From a virus (taxonomy: Duplodnaviria > Heunggongvirae > Uroviricota > Caudoviricetes), in IMG/VR virus record IMGVR_UViG_2609460125_000002, positions 1 through 9,600 of that record: a stretch of DNA of 9,600 nt. One strand, written 5' to 3'. Below, in pieces: positions 1 to 9,600 of the stretch. The position numbers and the translations under genes were made by a program. Under the pieces are notes generated by a model that was not told where the DNA came from, made no database searches, and saw only the letters and a program-made list of their open reading frames with translations. Position 1 is the first letter of the stretch. Each line of letters starts with the position of its first letter.

Positions 1-274
1 AACATCAATGTCGCGTAAAGGTAACTGTTACGACAACGCTCCGATGGAAAGCTTCTGGGGAACGCTGAAAAATGAGAGCCTGAGCCACTATCGTTTAATA
101 ACCGGGATGAAGCCATCTCAGTAATACGGGAATACATTGAGATTTTCTACAATCGTCAGCGTCGTCACTCTCGTCTGGGGAATATCTCCCCGGCAGCCTT
201 CAGGGAAAAATATCATCAGATGACTGCTTAAAAAAAGAACAAATGGTAGTGTCCGCTATTGCCAGTACACCTCA
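1..274 (+). mobile_element. 3' portion of an IS3-family insertion sequence (OrfB C-terminus plus right terminal region); exact IS not identified; right boundary approximate (269-274)
   Basis: Translation of 2..124 gives TSMSRKGNCYDNAPMESFWGTLKNESLSHYR, the conserved DDE-region signature of IS3-family OrfB. The adjacent integrase reading frame becomes non-integrase sequence at about 270-275. Terminal bases ...CAGTACA / ...CCTCA fit the TG...CA tips of IS3-family ends. Confidence 0.6.
2..231 (+). pseudogene. IS3-family transposase OrfB, C-terminal fragment with a frameshift
   Basis: Frame 2 reads ...GNCYDNAPMESFWGTLKNESLSHYRLITGMKPSQ* (stop 122-124). Frame 1 from 97 reads NNRDEAISVIREYIEIFYNRQRRHSRLGNISPAAFREKYHQMTA* (stop 229-231), the expected continuation of the same domain. 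A single missing base near 95-97 (cgttt-aataacc) joins the two. Confidence 0.6.
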
Positions 275-939
275 TCAAGGTCTGTAACGTTGGAACGGCG
301 AAGGCCTGTCGTGATTGCAAACATGACCACAGGGAAGAAATGAGGAGCAATTTCTGCAAACAGGCGCTTCGATTCCTCCTCTGTAAGCCATCTGATTCGT
401 CCATTCTTAACGCGTGGTGTTGATATTTTGGGCGCCCTGTCAAGCCATCCCCATTCAACAGCCATATTGAGAATAGCGCGAAGTATTGCCAGATGCCGCG
501 TCTTCGTTCCTTTGCTTGCCAGCTTTGGTTTATACTCCGGCACTGGCTTGCCAAGCCGCAAACACCTGTCCCGGCTCATTTCCCAGTTCAGGCGATGGCG
601 GCGGTTTTCCATCCCGTCTACCGCCTCCATTATTTTTTCTGTTGTTATGTCAGAGAGAATGGTTTCTCTGAAGTGCAACATCCAGAACGATATAATGCTC
701 TTGTCATCATCAATGGACTTCTTATCCGATTTCTCACGCAGCCACCGTATGCAGGCTTCCTTGAATAGCTTTTTCGGCGATTCCCCGAGATTTTTTACTC
801 TCCACGCTTCTGCTTTCAGACGATCGTGAAGTTCTTGCGCTTGCCTTTTGTCCGATGTTTCAAGAGAGCGTCTAACTCTTGATCCATCTGGCGCGACGAA
901 ATCGCAGTGCCACGTGCCACCGCGTAGTTTGATTGACAT
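256..939 (-). pseudogene. int: Phage tyrosine integrase, N-terminal fragment (227-aa ORF); catalytic C-terminal domain absent
   Basis: ATG at 939 preceded by AGGAGG (8 nt spacing). Protein has the N-terminal/core-binding region and ends just after a box-I-like motif AITTGLRRSNVTDL; no box II (HxxR...Y) follows. The last ~6 codons and the stop (256-258) appear to be supplied by the IS end. Confidence 0.7.
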
Positions 940-1901: not shown

Positions 1902-2435
1902 TTAGCCACGGTTAACCTCCTGAGGCGGTTCTGGTAGAGGCATCCAGTGGGTTACTCCATGCCATATACCAGTTAAGGTTTCAAACCTTGGCTCTCTGCC
2001 TTTCTGTGTCTTGGCATATTCATTCCTTGTATATACGCATTGTCTAACTGCATATCCATTCCATCCAATAACTGTTTGTCTAATTTCCGGCATCCGCTCA
2101 CTACAGCTTATCCAACCATCCGGAGTTACCGGCACTTGCTGGGCGGTATAAAGCGGTGTTATATCTGCCCGAAAATTACATGCTTTATGCAGCCGCACCC
2201 ACCGTTCGACTTCTGCTTTGTCAGAATACATACCAGTGAACGTGTTATATTCACGGTCAATTTGCGTGAATGTTACCTTCCACGCCACCGGCTCTGCTTC
2301 CAGCGATGCCAGTGCGATACGCAGGGCAGCCAGGATATTCCCCTGGTAATCATCAAGCCCGAAAGGAAGCTCATCACGAACGCTTTCATAATCGTTGATA
2401 GCCTGCTGCAGCCATTCTCTTGTGATAGTGCTCAT
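1902..2435 (-). CDS. DUF551-domain phage protein, 177 aa
   Basis: C-terminal region DGWISCSERMPE...GIWHGVTHWMPLPEPP matches the recalled DUF551 signature (W...THWMPLPEPP). ATG preceded by AGGAGAGG; start overlaps the upstream stop (ATGA). Confidence 0.65.
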   Translation of the reverse strand: MSTITREWLQQAINDYESVRDELPFGLDDYQGNILAALRIALASLEAEPVAWKVTFTQIDREYNTFTGMYSDKAEVERWVRLHKACNFRADITPLYTAQQVPVTPDGWISCSERMPEIRQTVIGWNGYAVRQCVYTRNEYAKTQKGREPRFETLTGIWHGVTHWMPLPEPPQEVNRG

Positions 2436-3166
2436 GATGCCTCTCCTTTACCTGCTTCGGTGACGTTTATTCCAGCGTTGTGCAGTGCCTCAAGAACCTG
2501 ATGCTGCCTGTAAACCATTTCAGTGTGGTAAGGCTTGTCAAAATCGACGCGATGCAACATGCTATAGCATTGCGGAAGCACAACCTCCCGCAACTCCAGC
2601 TCAGCAATGCGCTTCTCTGCGGCTTCCAGCTTCTCGCGCATATCGTCAACGTACTCGACCAGAGATCCGCCAGCAGGAATTTCGCATTCCTCGACCAGTT
2701 GGAAGTAGATATCAGCTGCGGCCCGTGTGTTGCTATGCCTAGCGTCGCCCATCTCACCTTCACGAAGAGCATCGCGTTCGGCGGTAAGATTGGCTATTTT
2801 GCTGTCTTTGCCTTCCAGCTCAACGCGCAGCCTCCCAACCGTAAGCGCAATATCCTCGTTCTCCTGGTCGCGTGATTTGATGTATTGCTGGTTTCTTTCC
2901 CGTTCATCCAGTAATGCCAGCACGGTAGCTGGACTGGCTGCTGCGATGAATTCAGCATTGGCCTGCTGTTCCATTTGGAAATCTTCATCGAAACCGCTTT
3001 CAGGATGCGCTCCTTCAATTCTGCAAATGGGAATATATCCAGCAACTTCTCGATGAATTAGCGCATCATCACCATCAAATTGGCCCTCTCCATATTCGAG
3101 CGACCACGCCCCACACGTTGCTTTCTCTGCCTTTTCACGCAGTGCCTGATAATCAATCTGGCTCAC
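2432..3166 (-). CDS. Ead/Ea22-like family phage protein, 244 aa, with central coiled-coil
   Basis: N-terminus [22 protein letters not shown]...ANAEFIAAASPATVLALLDERERNQQ resembles the Ead/Ea22-like N-terminal domain common in enterobacterial prophages. GTG start overlaps the upstream stop (GTGA). Confidence 0.6.
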   Translation of the reverse strand: MSQIDYQALREKAEKATCGAWSLEYGEGQFDGDDALIHREVAGYIPICRIEGAHPESGFDEDFQMEQQANAEFIAAASPATVLALLDERERNQQYIKSRDQENEDIALTVGRLRVELEGKDSKIANLTAERDALREGEMGDARHSNTRAAADIYFQLVEECEIPAGGSLVEYVDDMREKLEAAEKRIAELELREVVLPQCYSMLHRVDFDKPYHTEMVYRQHQVLEALHNAGINVTEAGKGEAS

Positions 3167-3408
3167 TGGTTGCCCCCCTGCTTTTCTGCCTTCAACACCA
3201 TGCGAGAACCATCATCCAACTCCCAAGCGATCTCACCACCTTCAGCCATGACCAGTCGCCACACCAATTGAGCAGCCTCATTGGTAACATCACGACCTGG
3301 ATCATTGCCAACGCGCATACGTCCACCTTCAACATCGCGCATTTTTGCCAGCATGATAGTTTTTGATAGCGGTGAAAAACCAAGCTGTAGTCGTGCTGAA
3401 TTACTCAC
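3163..3408 (-). CDS. Hypothetical phage protein, 81 aa
   Basis: GTG start at 3408 with AGGAGG 7 nt upstream; GTGA overlap with the upstream stop; ends ...QGGNQ. Confidence 0.5.
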
Positions 3409-3582: not shown

Positions 3583-3876
3583 TCAGTCATTACTGATAGC
3601 GCCATAGCGTGAGCGGTAATTACGCAGGCGCGGGTCAATTTCAGGGAAGTGGGTGTATGTGGCTTTGCGGAATGGTCGGATTGATGTCTGGTAAATTCGC
3701 TCGCGTTCTTCTTTCTCTGCAAGCCATATACAGTGGCGAAATCCCTTTTCCTCTTTCGTTTCCTGCGGTAGCGACATTATCAGGTCGTAGTTTTTCCTGA
3801 ATTTATCCAGCACCTCCGATACGGAATTGCCGGAACAGCGGCGCGCGTCGTCCGCACCATATAGAGGCGCTGGCAT
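3583..3876 (-). CDS. Hypothetical phage protein, 97 aa
   Basis: ATG at 3876 with AGGAGAA 5 nt upstream; no recognisable motif. Confidence 0.5.
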
Positions 3877-3889
3877 GATTTTCTCCTGA

Positions 3890-4396
3890 TTAAATTGCGT
3901 GAATAGCGTGACGAGGGAAGGGGAGAGTTACTGGTGCAAAGGGTATATCGTCGTCAAAATCCATAGGAGGTTCGTTGTGTTGTGCTGGTGATGATTGCTG
4001 CTGTGGCTTCTGTGATTGCCTGCTGGCTGCTTGTTGTTTGCTGTCGCCAATGCCGCCAAGCATTTGCATCACGCCATTAATTCCGACATGAACCTCGGTT
4101 GTGTAACGGTCTTGCCCTGACTGGTCTTTCCACTTTCTGGTTCTCAGCATTCCCTCGAAATAAATCTGATCACCTTTTTTCACATACTGCCCCACGACCT
4201 CAGCCAGTTTCCCGGATACAGCAACACGATGCCATTCAGTCAATTCCTTTTGCTCGCCAGTATTTTTATCTCGCCATTGTTCTGATGTGGCTATTGTCAG
4301 GTTAGCGAACGCTGTTCCTGATGATGAGTATCGGACTTCCGGGTCTTGTCCTACCCGACCAAGGATAATCACCTTATTTACGCCTCTGCTTGCCAT
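3890..4396 (-). CDS. ssb: Single-stranded DNA-binding protein (SSB), 168 aa, with a 15-residue extension after the DDDIPF tail
   Basis: N-terminal OB-fold sequence [23 protein letters not shown]...TEWHRV...[12 protein letters not shown] and the acidic tail ...[13 protein letters not shown] are textbook SSB. The ORF then continues [15 protein letters not shown] before TAA at 3890-3892. Confidence 0.9.
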
Positions 4397-5104
4397 TTAT
4401 GCCACCTGTTTTAGTTCGTTAACTCTGATGTTCATTACCTGAACGCATTTAGCCTGCGCCTCCTCGTTGCCAGCCATTAATTGCCAGTCACGCTGATAAC
4501 GCTCGATGAGTTTTTTCTTGTCAGTTTCTGTTGACGCATAATCGCTGAAGTCTTTCAGGATTTGCTCGCAGTCAACCGATGGAGATTTCTGGTTGGTATT
4601 TTCTGGTGATGGTTTGTTATCTGATGCTGGGATTGCCCATCCCGGCAGCGATGGAGGGAGCCAGTAAAATCCTGTTCCATCCTTGAGTTTTGCCCTGTGC
4701 CATCCCTGCTTTTTATCGAGAGATGTTTGTGCGAAACCTTCCTCAAGGTTATACAGATACCGACCGATTCCCCACTGAACGGCAGCGCGCTTCATTGCAC
4801 CGGAACGACCACCTTTGACGGCTTCTACCTGCGTGTTTTCAGCAGCATCCCATTTGGTTACCCATTCGGAATCAATCTTGATTGATATGCCGCATTCAAC
4901 GCCGCCGTTGTTGGGAATATCGCGGTATTCATTGCGCCATCCTGCTTTGCCGCAAACATCGTCCAGGCGTTTCATGATTGCCCTGTTCGTGACATAAGCC
5001 AGCACCATAGCCCACACTTTTCCATCGCGTGTTTTACCGCTTTGCTGTATTCGCCATTCGATATCTTCAGGGCTGAATGGCTCATCGAATTTATTCAAAT
5101 CCAT
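4397..5104 (-). CDS. Rad52/Sak-type single-strand annealing protein (recombinase), 235 aa
   Basis: Motifs GAMKRAAVQWGIGRYLY and GKAGWRNEY resemble the Rad52 annealing-domain signature; sits immediately upstream of ssb (TAAATG junction), a typical phage recombination module. RBS GAGGTG. Confidence 0.65.
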   Translation of the reverse strand: MDLNKFDEPFSPEDIEWRIQQSGKTRDGKVWAMVLAYVTNRAIMKRLDDVCGKAGWRNEYRDIPNNGGVECGISIKIDSEWVTKWDAAENTQVEAVKGGRSGAMKRAAVQWGIGRYLYNLEEGFAQTSLDKKQGWHRAKLKDGTGFYWLPPSLPGWAIPASDNKPSPENTNQKSPSVDCEQILKDFSDYASTETDKKKLIERYQRDWQLMAGNEEAQAKCVQVMNIRVNELKQVA

Positions 5105-5651: not shown

Positions 5652-6620
5652 TTAGTAGGTTATTTTTGTTGCGAATACTTCGCCTTTTACGATGGCTGTT
5701 ATGATATTTTTAGCAACATCTTCTGATGCACCAACCTTGATAAGGTCAACAAGTATTTTGTTATTTACTTCTTTCCGGTGAGCTTTATCTTTTGCTCTAC
5801 GCTCTTCTTCGTCCTTGATTCTTTTTTCTTCTGCTATTCTGGCTTGCTCTTTTGCTTCAGCCTCGCGACGGATTCGTTCAGCCTCCTCCTGTGCTTTTCT
5901 GCGTTCTGCTTCAATTGCCGCATGCTTTTCTCTTTCAGCTCGTTCCGCCGCCTCTTTTGCTTCGCGCTGTGCTCGTTGCTCGGCTTCAATGCGTTCACGC
6001 TCTGCTCGTTCCGCAGCGGCCTTAGCTTCTGCTTCTCGCCTTGCTGCTGCTTCAATTTCGGCTTTTGCCTTTGCTTCGGCTTCTGCTCTGACTTTCTCTT
6101 CAGCTTCTCTTTTTAAGCGTTCTTCATGCTCTCGCTTTTCCTGCTCCGCTTTGAGTCTTGCCTCTTCTCTTTGGCGGTCAAATTCGCGATCCATCAAAAT
6201 CGCTATTTCATGGTCAGACTCAATTTGCTTTGCGAGAGCTTCAGCTGCTGCCTTAGCTTCTTCTTCGGCTTTAATCCGCGCCTGCTCCTCCTCATAATCA
6301 GTAAGAGGCTGGCGCGCCTTGGCTTTCAGTTCATCAAGGCGATCACGCACTGTCTTGCGGTTGGCATCAATTAGCTTTGGAATTTCCTTCAGTTCAGCAA
6401 CAAGGTCTTTGCCAAGACCATCGAGATATGTTTTCGTCTGCGCAACTTTATACGCCAGAGAAGCGATCTCCTTTCTGCCCTTTGCCGTTGTGATATCAGG
6501 CACAAAGGACATAACTTCACGTTCAACCTTTTGGAGAATTTCTTCAATCTGGTCGGCAGACTTAAATACAGTCATTGCATTTGCTTTTTCAATAACAACT
6601 AAATCTGTTACTTCACTCAT
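5652..6620 (-). CDS. Hypothetical phage protein, 322 aa: N-terminal domain, ~150-residue E/A/K/R-rich coiled-coil (TolA-like low complexity), short C-terminal domain
   Basis: ATG at 6620 with GGAGG 5 nt upstream, directly after a terminator hairpin; the track start at 6674 reads through that terminator. The underlying DNA is repetitive and produces spurious plus-strand ORFs. Confidence 0.6.
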   Translation of the reverse strand: MSEVTDLVVIEKANAMTVFKSADQIEEILQKVEREVMSFVPDITTAKGRKEIASLAYKVAQTKTYLDGLGKDLVAELKEIPKLIDANRKTVRDRLDELKAKARQPLTDYEEEQARIKAEEEAKAAAEALAKQIESDHEIAILMDREFDRQREEARLKAEQEKREHEERLKREAEEKVRAEAEAKAKAEIEAAARREAEAKAAAERAERERIEAEQRAQREAKEAAERAEREKHAAIEAERRKAQEEAERIRREAEAKEQARIAEEKRIKDEEERRAKDKAHRKEVNNKILVDLIKVGASEDVAKNIITAIVKGEVFATKITY

Positions 6621-6630
6621 ATATCCTCCA

Positions 6631-6662
6631 TCAAAAAAATTGCCCTCACACTGGAGGGCAAA
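6631..6662 (-). terminator. Intrinsic terminator (minus strand): stem TGCCCTC/GAGGGCA, 6-nt loop, followed by U7
   Basis: Plus strand 6633-6660 aaaaaaaTTGCCCTCacactgGAGGGCA; on the minus strand the hairpin precedes UUUUUUU and then the GGAGG RBS of the 322-aa gene. Confidence 0.5.
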
Positions 6663-6721
6663 GAAGATTTCCAATAATCAGAACAAGTCGGCTCCTGTTT
6701 AGTTACGAGCGACATTGCTCC

Positions 6722-7271: not shown

Positions 7272-7298
7272 CCAAAAATAAAGGCCGACTATGCGACC
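7272..7298 (-). terminator. Intrinsic terminator (minus strand): 5-bp stem with one G-U pair, loop CAUAGU, followed by UUUAUUUUU
   Basis: Plus strand 7274-7298 aaaaataaaGGCCGactatgCGACC; the loop contains the UAG stop (7289-7291) of the 207-aa gene. Confidence 0.4.
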
Positions 7299-7912
7299 TC
7301 GGAAGGAAGTCCAATCATCTTATTCAAATCTTCTACCCGTAAAGCAGGAAGTGCTGTACTTGCTTTATCTGCTTCTTTTGGTAGCAATTCTTTGCTTTCA
7401 GGCCAAACTTCAATAAGTCGCTTAACTGTTGTGACTGAGTTCAAAGCAGCCCATACATTTGATTCGATATCCTTTTTCTTGGCTTCAAGTTTTTGTTGCA
7501 ATGCGCAGATTTCATCAAACCTTTTTGTTATTTTGTGTTCTGCATCAAACATGCATTTATCTTTGGTTGGAGTAGGGAGAAATATATCTTCGCCATTGCC
7601 GTCTTTCCCATATGAATGCCATCCAACCCTTCTGCCAGATACAGTCAGATAAATTGAAGTAGAACGAAATTCGTATGAGTAAAATGAACATCCCATCTTT
7701 TCAAGTTCTTCACTTATAGCTACCAACTTGGATGATAACTGATCCACTTCCTCAGTTTTCTTTTTACCGCCAAACGCAATAACTCTGGCGTCAAGTGCAA
7801 GCTGGTTCTTTAACTTTGTTACTTCTTCAAGTTCAGTGAAAACCCCAGACTTAATTAAAGCGTTACGAGCGATTTCCTCTTTCATTCTCGTAGTTAAGCG
7901 GATTGATGACAT
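7289..7912 (-). CDS. Hypothetical phage protein, 207 aa, unknown function
   Basis: ATG at 7912 with GAGG 8 nt upstream, after a terminator hairpin; the track start (7927) is a TTG extension. No catalytic motif or strongly hydrophobic segment recognised. Confidence 0.55.
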   Translation of the reverse strand: MSSIRLTTRMKEEIARNALIKSGVFTELEEVTKLKNQLALDARVIAFGGKKKTEEVDQLSSKLVAISEELEKMGCSFYSYEFRSTSIYLTVSGRRVGWHSYGKDGNGEDIFLPTPTKDKCMFDAEHKITKRFDEICALQQKLEAKKKDIESNVWAALNSVTTVKRLIEVWPESKELLPKEADKASTALPALRVEDLNKMIGLPSEVA

Positions 7913-7936
7913 ATTAATTCCTCTCAAATAAGAAAA

Positions 7937-8776: not shown

Positions 8777-8934
8777 GTTGACCTCCGATGATTGACTTTG
8801 GCGGTGACGCGACGGGTGCTTATCTTCCGGTTGCTGTCGTGCAGCTGCACTTCACGTCACCCTGAAGTGGCACACTGAATTTGGCCACCTGAACAGAGGT
8901 GATATGCTCACCTCAGAACAACACAGGTGCTCCA

Positions 8935-9600
<666 letters not shown>

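Follow-up and report, generated by a model that had tools for sequence, protein, structure and literature searches.

Bacterial homotetrameric single-stranded DNA-binding proteins (SSBs; family PF00436), such as those of Escherichia coli, of plasmids and of phages, are composed of an OB fold, a disordered Gln/Pro-rich linker and an acidic C-terminal tip. About twenty genome-maintenance proteins dock on this tip (...DDDIPF-COOH), and its free Phe carboxylate is regarded as indispensable. The SSB-Ct pockets of such partners share a common architecture, in which a salt bridge is formed to the carboxylate of the C-terminal Phe (PMC5872125). Here, we examined an SSB gene (ssb) located in the first 9,600 nucleotides of the IMG/VR virus record IMGVR_UViG_2609460125_000002 (Caudoviricetes; this whole stretch is hereafter called the window). 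Its product has the OB fold, linker and acidic tip of the described proteins; unlike E. coli-type SSBs, however, it carries the tip internally, with 15 conserved residues beyond it and no Phe α-carboxylate.

In being encoded beside an annealing protein, the window SSB recalls two described pairs, namely HK620 SSB (HkaK) with Sak4 and E. coli SSB with Red-beta; the C-terminal domain of Red-beta reportedly interacts with E. coli SSB. The C-terminal tail of HK620 SSB is a functional interaction element, its last six residues being required for Sak4 loading (PMC5928155). Unlike the window protein, HK620 SSB belongs to another SSB type and ends in a terminal NDYPPF without extension, and in contrast to the HK620/Sak4 pairing, the extension described here is also found on IncN plasmids that have no annealing protein. 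According to a 2025 survey of lambdoid Rec modules, experimental work on 'SSB-1' proteins such as this one is lacking (PMC12315714), and an ExoI-linked defence system can be set off by SSB-like phage proteins whose tip is canonical (bioRxiv 10.64898/2026.04.29.721553). Neither the extension peptide strings nor an extended SSB tip were found in the literature searched, a PDB search with the tip-plus-extension peptide gave no match, and none of 30 solved SSB homologues aligns beyond the IPF, the alignments covering residues 1-153 of the window SSB. As far as the available literature shows, the extended tail is undescribed.

We propose that the 15 residues constitute a conserved, autonomously portable C-terminal module of SSBs from gamma-proteobacterial mobile elements, forming a composite docking motif in which the canonical tip is masked; for this reading as a whole we see about an even chance. 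The module is carried by lambdoid and P22-like phages, by a phage-like plasmid, and by IncN and other conjugative plasmids, and in all material examined the extension is confined to mobile-element contexts. It probably alters which partner proteins the SSB recruits.

That the window SSB runs 15 residues past DDDIPF, as the original prediction from the bare sequence had it, is confirmed by translation of 3890..4396 (minus strand): the codon following Phe153 (3935-3937) is GCA (Ala) rather than a stop, 15 additional codons occupy 3893-3937, and the stop is reached at 3890-3892. The remainder of the protein is conventional. It matches the E. coli SSB structures 1eqq/4mz9 in a phmmer search (E=1e-56), its OB fold is 60-70% identical to those of enterobacterial SSBs, and its acidic tip motif D-F-D-D-D-I-P-F (within residues 143-153) is identical to the E. 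coli tip and aligns with the C-terminus of the solved SSB chain 7f2n_A. Within the tip, P143, P144, M145, D148-150, P152 and F153 are invariant or nearly so among aligned relatives. Judged by OB fold, linker and tip, the protein is a bona fide PF00436 SSB, and the terminal position of the tip is the one property it lacks: 15 residues lie beyond Phe153, and the tip has no free Phe carboxylate. An AlphaFold2 (AF2) model based on a 44-sequence alignment resolves the OB fold, with beta strands within residues 8-113 at a predicted local distance difference test score (pLDDT) of about 75-86. Because pLDDT is below 50 over residues 114-168, the extension is modelled as a disordered linear motif and not as a folded cap; a tail folding back onto the OB fold receives no support from this model of the SSB alone, in which the tail is disordered. 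As a separate observation, residue 25 (4322-4324) is Ser (RYSSSG), where HK75 and at least 90% of the aligned relatives have Pro; it is a rare exception at an OB-fold position that otherwise hardly varies.

An open stretch of 15 codons in a single sequence is no proof, so recurrence is needed, and the case for the extension rests on an identical 15-codon length and stop recurring in hundreds of independent sequences. HK75, epsilon34 and ECP1, all of them plaque-forming phages, have SSBs whose last 15 residues are identical to those of the window SSB, and the identical 45-nt extension DNA lies within the annotated ssb genes of mEpX2, mEp235 and g341c. When 5.8 billion proteins were searched, 111 of the 120 best SSB clusters (90% identity) extended 15 residues past the IPF, a count biased upward since the query sequence itself had the extension; seven clusters showed canonical ends and two were otherwise altered. 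From 44 distinct extensions we derived the consensus [AS]-P-[VI]-[TG]-L-[PQ]-[FY]-P-[R]-H-x-[IV]-[HY]-x-[IL], in which P2, L5, F/Y7, H10, I/V12, H/Y13 and I/L15 are nearly fixed. Its first half is also kept in Vibrio, Aeromonas and Hafnia elements, as APIGLQY or APIGLMH.

At the nucleotide level, 22 distinct versions show synonymous variation at most of the 15 codons, Ala, Pro, Val, Leu, Arg and Ile codons being interchangeable, and the proportions of synonymous (pS) and replacement (pN) differences are 0.64 and 0.19 (pN/pS 0.30). This codon pattern indicates that purifying selection acts on the extension at the protein level. Because synonymous change far exceeds replacement change while the peptide pattern and stop position are kept, a DNA-level cause for the conservation is, on this comparison, excluded. 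A programmed frameshift yielding both SSB forms was considered as well and ruled out, the junction CCC-TTT-G not being kept at synonymous positions in relatives.

The same data bear on the suggestion, made in the original prediction, that the stop after Phe was lost in a degenerating prophage gene, and on a sequencing error, which it named as a refuting circumstance. The truncated integrase open reading frame (ORF) and insertion sequence (IS) fragment of the window prophage, together with the unusual Ser25, could be taken as signs of decay. Against this, hundreds of independent genomes, viable phages and plasmids share the extension, and the rest of ssb is intact, with 99.4% identity of its product to HK75 SSB. 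Where a stop was to be sought in relatives at the equivalent of 3935-3937, the 22 nucleotide versions of extended relatives always stop 15 codons later, and in Enterobacterales relatives this position is constant. Pseudogenes would be expected to show a defect in one lineage, a pN/pS near 1 and a variable end point, none of which is seen in the extended ssb. With length and sequence conserved across Enterobacterales and beyond, both ideas are refuted, and decay or error retains a negligible probability.

Regarding its distribution, the 81-nt tip-plus-extension (coverage ≥80%) is present in 297 of 5,426 complete E. coli genomes (about 5%), where the gene is annotated simply as ssb. A degenerate back-translated extension pattern matched GTDB genomes of Providencia, Proteus, Moellerella, Trabulsiella, Lelliottia, Atlantibacter, Enterobacter, Kluyvera, Buttiauxella, Pantoea, Apirhabdus and Symbiopectobacterium, and the same kind of pattern identified at least 116 IMG/VR viral loci. 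Beyond the Enterobacteriaceae, related extensions of 15 residues are found on the SSBs of Hafnia phage Pocitis76 (APIGLMHPTHAIFSI) and of a Vibrio plasmid (APIGLQHPALVHCMG), and of 14 residues on those of Vibrio phage K280 (APIGLQYPAIVHCM) and Aeromonas phage AsC4_1 (APIGLQYRSLLNAM). IncN conjugative plasmids, for example pTR4, encode an extended-tail SSB, and variants also occur on a Salmonella plasmid with phage-type genes and on Vibrio and Providencia plasmids; the Providencia IncC locus is prophage-like, with an ATP-binding protein (possibly Sak4-like) encoded upstream of ssb. A HMMER search with the last 30 SSB residues against 1.84 billion cluster representatives returned 13 matches, mostly fragments, which added a few further tail variants and no new carrier families, the tail being hidden by the 50%-identity clustering of that set. 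On a 219-kb E. coli MOBH plasmid (L063, 3018-3581), the SSB carries a more divergent extension of 16 residues, so that the range of extended SSB tips may be wider and more diverse than the 15-residue family shows. A type IV secretion signal for plasmid SSBs, considered in the light of PMC8406263, was dropped as an explanation given that the same tail is present on phage SSBs.

Tip and extension together occur on three scaffolds: classic PF00436 SSBs, a short divergent PF00436 SSB (MAINTITISGNVGKD...), and a 243-aa phage SSB without Pfam match (phrog_743). Because tip and extension are both conserved and travel together between scaffolds, the DDDIPF and the extension probably form one composite docking peptide, as far as sequence comparison can tell. 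Such a module would comprise, fused to the acidic tip, an extended hydrophobic part, [AS]P[VI][TG]L[PQ][FY], followed by a short amphipathic part, P-R-H-x-[IV]-[HY]-x-[IL]-COOH.

We envisage that the SSB would still coat single-stranded DNA (ssDNA) through its OB fold, which the domain match and the model suggest to be intact. Phe153, peptide-bonded to Ala154, would then present no free α-carboxylate to the pockets of ExoI, RecO, PriA, chi and DnaG, and, going by published structures, the host SSB interactome would hardly see ssDNA coated in this way, the carboxylate-dependent docking of host partners being expected to disappear or to become much weaker. Lastly, tip and extension, with their new hydrophobic C-terminus, would offer another partner a peptide to dock on. 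The second option of the original prediction, a natural variant that binds ssDNA without recruiting partners, is borne out as far as a natural and widespread variant is concerned, and its functional part points in the right direction, the known pockets sharing the salt bridge to the Phe carboxylate (PMC5872125). A mere cap is disfavoured, however: the joint conservation of DDDIPF and extension argues for a specific new interaction. Judging from the genomic contexts, in which the module accompanies various unrelated annealing proteins and is also found on plasmids lacking one, a host factor that Enterobacterales and Vibrionales have in common is a more likely partner than one particular phage protein.

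We further considered, tentatively and with considerable doubt, a 'partner-switch' tail, by which the SSB of the element would deny the host interactome access to ssDNA and recruit one host factor instead. Denied would be RecO/RecA and SOS induction, ExoI, RecQ and possibly defence systems sensing foreign SSB tips, and the recruited factor could be, for example, the sliding clamp or an AAA+ machine. If true, this would be a previously unrecognised form of SSB-based host manipulation common to temperate phages and conjugative plasmids. Irrespective of the partner, a large natural class of SSBs, including those of well-known phages (HK75, epsilon34, mEp235) and IncN resistance plasmids, breaks the terminal-tip rule. 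It offers material for the questions of what role the tip plays when it is not terminal and of how mobile elements insulate or redirect ssDNA during recombination, conjugative entry and SOS avoidance, and it is relevant to recombineering toolkits of annealing protein/SSB pairs and to defence systems triggered by phage SSBs.

Insertions of HNH endonuclease genes between tip and extension provide natural extension-minus controls. The SSB of phage Sf6 (gp27) has a canonical end, ...NFDDSDIPF, and is followed by the HNH endonuclease gp26 (L003, 2311-2790), which lies directly before abc2 and whose C-terminus is taken from the SSB extension; the Sf6 record itself remarks on 14 residues identical to 'E. 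coli SSB'. Phage Huey, with an ssb near-identical to that of the window, allows the exact mapping of such a cassette (L066, 608-1090): it supplies a recoded tip NFDDEIPF, a stop codon, a ribosome-binding site (RBS) and an HNH ORF (CDS0028), the final codons of which read into ACCAGTAACT..., that is, into the former extension. The same junction is occupied by two HNH lineages that are only about 47% identical, each with a recoded tip and stop, and in cluster P0013, whose SSBs end canonically, an uncalled HNH ORF comes after ssb and runs into the tail. Because most HNH relatives in the search, compared as proteins only, end soon after ...WHKHNKPIY with unrelated short tails, the extension is, on this comparison, native to the SSB and not to the HNH family. 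Klebsiella phage phiKp_30 contains, in an unannotated gap (L005, 2350-2553), an internally deleted HNH remnant starting MKICSRCH..., and its orphaned tail, outside any intact ORF, has changed to RHAAYAI.

The junction thus looks like a homing-endonuclease target with co-converted flanks: set against the window, the related genomes of Huey and Sf6 have an endonuclease gene inserted at precisely this point between recoded flanks, and the highly conserved DNA of tip and extension would make an attractive target. In this the relatives resemble free-standing HNH homing genes inserted in conserved phage genes: Sf6 gp26 and Huey CDS0028 sit at the junction itself and bring the recoded tip and stop typical of homing cassettes. 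The window, by contrast, represents the uninterrupted, HNH-free allele, and homing is predicted from sequence. As an aside, the region also gives rise to chimeric ORFs (among them P0131, P0134, P0144, P0173, P0180, P0183 and P0319), in which an SSB N-terminus is joined to an HNH C-terminus or an HNH N-terminus to a DnaQ-like exonuclease; in P0319, a deletion fusion, an unrelated N-terminal sequence is joined to the SSB tail. These chimeras point to recurrent deletions between module genes.

The insertions are also relevant to the possibility that the 45 nt are a functionless translated spacer, kept for DNA-level reasons such as a mosaic boundary, a homing-site sequence that gene conversion has spread, or a role in starting translation of the gene that follows. 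In E. coli phages and Salmonella phages the 45 nt of the extension are almost invariant while the flanks differ by 10-20%, which fits gene conversion at a recombination or homing junction; moreover, the junction hosts insertions of HNH and exonuclease genes, and the RBS of abc2 follows immediately. Distant relatives nevertheless vary at synonymous sites and keep the peptide and the stop (pS 0.64 vs pN 0.19), the downstream gene differs between loci (abc2, DnaQ-like exonuclease, others), and plasmids, as well as SSB bodies without homology to one another, bear the same peptide. The tail has changed in phiKp_30, whose HNH carrier is a pseudogene. A spacer is for these reasons highly improbable.

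A further explanation is that the extension would serve as a C-terminal degron, read by an AAA+ protease of the cytoplasm (ClpXP, ClpAP, Lon or FtsH), by which a potentially toxic mobile-element SSB, and the HNH nuclease inheriting its tag, would be short-lived after an early burst of expression. The extension shares with C-terminal linear motifs, such as beta-clamp hexapeptides and the ssrA and MuA ClpX tags, that it is short, disordered, hydrophobic, C-terminal and transferable; the resemblance is partial, for it has neither the Gln1 of clamp motifs nor the LAA or RRKKAI of the tags. The MuA-type ClpX motif (...RRKKAI) and the ssrA tag (...YALAA) loosely resemble ...RHAIHAI, ...HSIYAL and ...RVYAL, and the extension ends in [HY]-[AVSC]-[ILVM]-COOH preceded by R-H, in partial similarity to the ClpX degron consensus. 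Consistent with a degron, the module behaves as one unit on three SSB scaffolds that are unrelated, HNH endonucleases retain it in frame, the hydrophobic -x-[IV]-[HY]-x-[IL]-COOH end of the module lies in a disordered extension and is preceded by basic residues, and the carriers of the module are temperate phages and plasmid establishment regions, for which expression is transient. Nevertheless, the likeness to known degrons is loose, in-frame retention on HNH genes is equally explained by termination-reinitiation coupling to the downstream gene, and a degron would leave unexplained both the conservation of the internal DDDIPF and the N-terminal half AP[IV]GL[QP][YF], which is the most widely conserved part. 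Overall, we consider a degron unlikely.

This N-terminal half could instead be read as a hexapeptide-type beta-clamp motif, P-[VI]-[TG]-L-[PQ]-[FY], that brings the sliding clamp or a polymerase of the replisome to the ssDNA of the element. Clamp-binding motifs such as those of Hda (QLSLPL), Pol IV (QLVLGL) and epsilon (QTSMAF) follow the consensus Q-L-x-L-x-[LF], with an aliphatic residue at position 2, Leu/Met at 4 and Phe/Leu at 6. In the extension, V/I, L and F/Y are kept at positions 3, 5 and 7, so that hexapeptide positions 2, 4 and 6 (aliphatic, Leu, aromatic) fit x-phi-x-L-x-[FL] within a disordered region; this is the part of the module conserved out to Vibrio and Aeromonas, and a host partner would suit the distribution over phages and plasmids. 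However, where the motif has its hallmark Gln (position 1), 43 of 44 extension versions have Pro (extension position 2), and the pattern is short and loose, which makes it weak evidence. Recruitment of the clamp is accordingly improbable in our judgement.

Finally, the gene upstream of ssb raises the question of whether the partner is encoded by the element itself. With its neighbours, the window ssb makes up the recombination module of an early-left operon of lambdoid or P22-like type; the region is 97-98% identical to phage HK75, and ssb abuts a gene for a Rad52-like single-strand annealing protein (SSAP). In the AF2 model this SSAP has a confidently predicted C-terminal three-helix domain behind a disordered linker; Foldseek matched the N-terminal domain to Mgm101/RAD52, and among the 50 matches listed none covered the three-helix domain. 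This C-terminal domain, of about 60 aa and with the pattern ...LKDF...W...Q.KC...R..ELKQAA (window 4400-4570, SSAP residues about 179-234), is common to three unrelated SSAP cores, namely Rad52-like, Erf-like (about 207 aa) and Sak4/AAA_24, and also lies upstream of ssb in loci L023, L026, L032, L034, L036 and L012; it may be a shuffled partner-interaction domain.

The extended tail could in this case be a handle that loads the SSAP of the element through the three-helix domain. In most phage loci the extended ssb directly follows the SSAP gene and is probably translationally coupled to it, the shared C-terminal domain (...ELKQAA) is encoded upstream in 68 of the 116 viral loci listed, and the requirement of the HK620 SSB tail for Sak4 loading offers a precedent (PMC5928155). 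Arguing the other way, the extension also occurs beside RecT, YqaJ-type exonuclease, P-loop, HD-like and further genes without the three-helix domain and on IncN plasmids without any SSAP, and phages with the same SSAP domain work with a canonical-ended SSB after HNH insertion. Docking of the cognate SSAP therefore appears quite unlikely, though it is by no means a negligible alternative.

Several of these observations weigh against the composite docking module that we favour. The strong conservation of DDDIPF inside extended SSBs shows that the tip still serves some purpose, which is awkward for a simply masked tip, and the frequency of the shared SSAP domain upstream of ssb fits a phage partner. 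Sf6, Huey, IME10 and N7, all with HNH insertions, thrive on a canonical SSB, so that plaque formation does not require the extension, at least under laboratory conditions. In addition, the predicted loss of host-partner binding derives only from structures of other proteins, and the cluster count carries the upward bias given above.

The features of the ssb region are collected in Table 1.

Table 1. Positions of ssb, its tail elements and the adjoining genes in the window
Feature	Position	Strand	Basis and remarks
abc2, anti-RecBCD	3583..3876	minus	PF11043, E=4e-63; immediately downstream of ssb
Shine-Dalgarno AGGAG of abc2	3883..3887	minus	sequence; 3 nt past ssb stop, outside the extension
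ssb, 168-aa SSB (including stop codon)	3890..4396	minus	ORF list; PF00436, E=6e-36; 99.4% identity to HK75 SSB
ssb stop codon TAA	3890..3892	minus	TAA or TGA in 22 nucleotide versions, 15 codons past the IPF Phe
Extension sub-motif 2, PRHAIHAI, aa 161-168	3893..3916	minus	consensus P-[R]-H-x-[IV]-[HY]-x-[IL]-COOH; new hydrophobic C-terminus
Extension sub-motif 1, APVTLPF, aa 154-160	3917..3937	minus	consensus [AS]P[VI][TG]L[PQ][FY]
Segment swapped for HNH cassette in relatives, GATTTTGACGACGATATACCCTTTGC	3936..3961	minus	window/Huey/Sf6 nucleotide alignment; right junction 3935|3936; presumed homing site
Acidic SSB-Ct tip, aa 143-153, internal rather than terminal	3938..3970	minus	translation, relatives, 7f2n_A alignment
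Gln/Ser-rich disordered linker, aa 114-142	3971..4057	minus	AF2 pLDDT <50; not conserved among aligned relatives
OB-fold ssDNA-binding domain, aa 6-104	4085..4381	minus	Pfam PF00436 match (E=6.1e-36), AF2 model
Rad52-like single-strand annealing protein	4397..5104	minus	PF04098, E=5e-26; stop abuts ssb ATG, gap 0 nt

The RBS of the next gene had been placed within the extension by the original prediction; this was wrong, as the AGGAG of abc2 (3883-3887) sits 3 nt past the ssb stop. Across loci, the gene upstream of the extended ssb may be Rad52-like, Erf-like, Sak4, RecT, a P-loop protein, HNH, HD-like or a YqaJ-type exonuclease, among others, and the downstream gene is likewise variable (abc2, DnaQ-like exonuclease and others). 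On IncN plasmids, ssb has as neighbours repA, a TrfB-related gene, a SprT-like protease gene and antirestriction genes, and no annealing-protein gene was found near ssb in the loci examined. On two of these plasmids (L054, pTR4, 2005-3353; L055, 3539-4890) the extended ssb is convergent with a gene for a SprT-family zinc metalloprotease, SprT being a family of DNA-dependent proteases.

Elsewhere in the window, the integrase ORF (256-939, minus strand) encodes 227 aa compared with 386 aa in HK75, and homology to HK75 and ECP1 ends at position 275 (region 1-275). The 3' part of int seems to have been cut off or exchanged, and because the ORF is short and homology stops at 275, the sequence suggests that the window is part of a defective prophage. 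A 95-aa ORF at 8899-9186 (plus strand) has a transposase HTH_Tnp_1 domain, is IS3-family orfA-like and seems to break off early; we take it to be IS911-like, and an IS element appears to interrupt the early-left operon. A 212-aa protein (7289-7927, minus strand) matches Nmad5, nucleotide-modification-associated domain 5 (E=8e-72). The ORF at 5652-6674 (minus strand) encodes a 340-aa Glu/Ala/Lys/Arg-rich protein without Pfam match, probably a coiled coil, which recurs beside these recombination modules in other loci.

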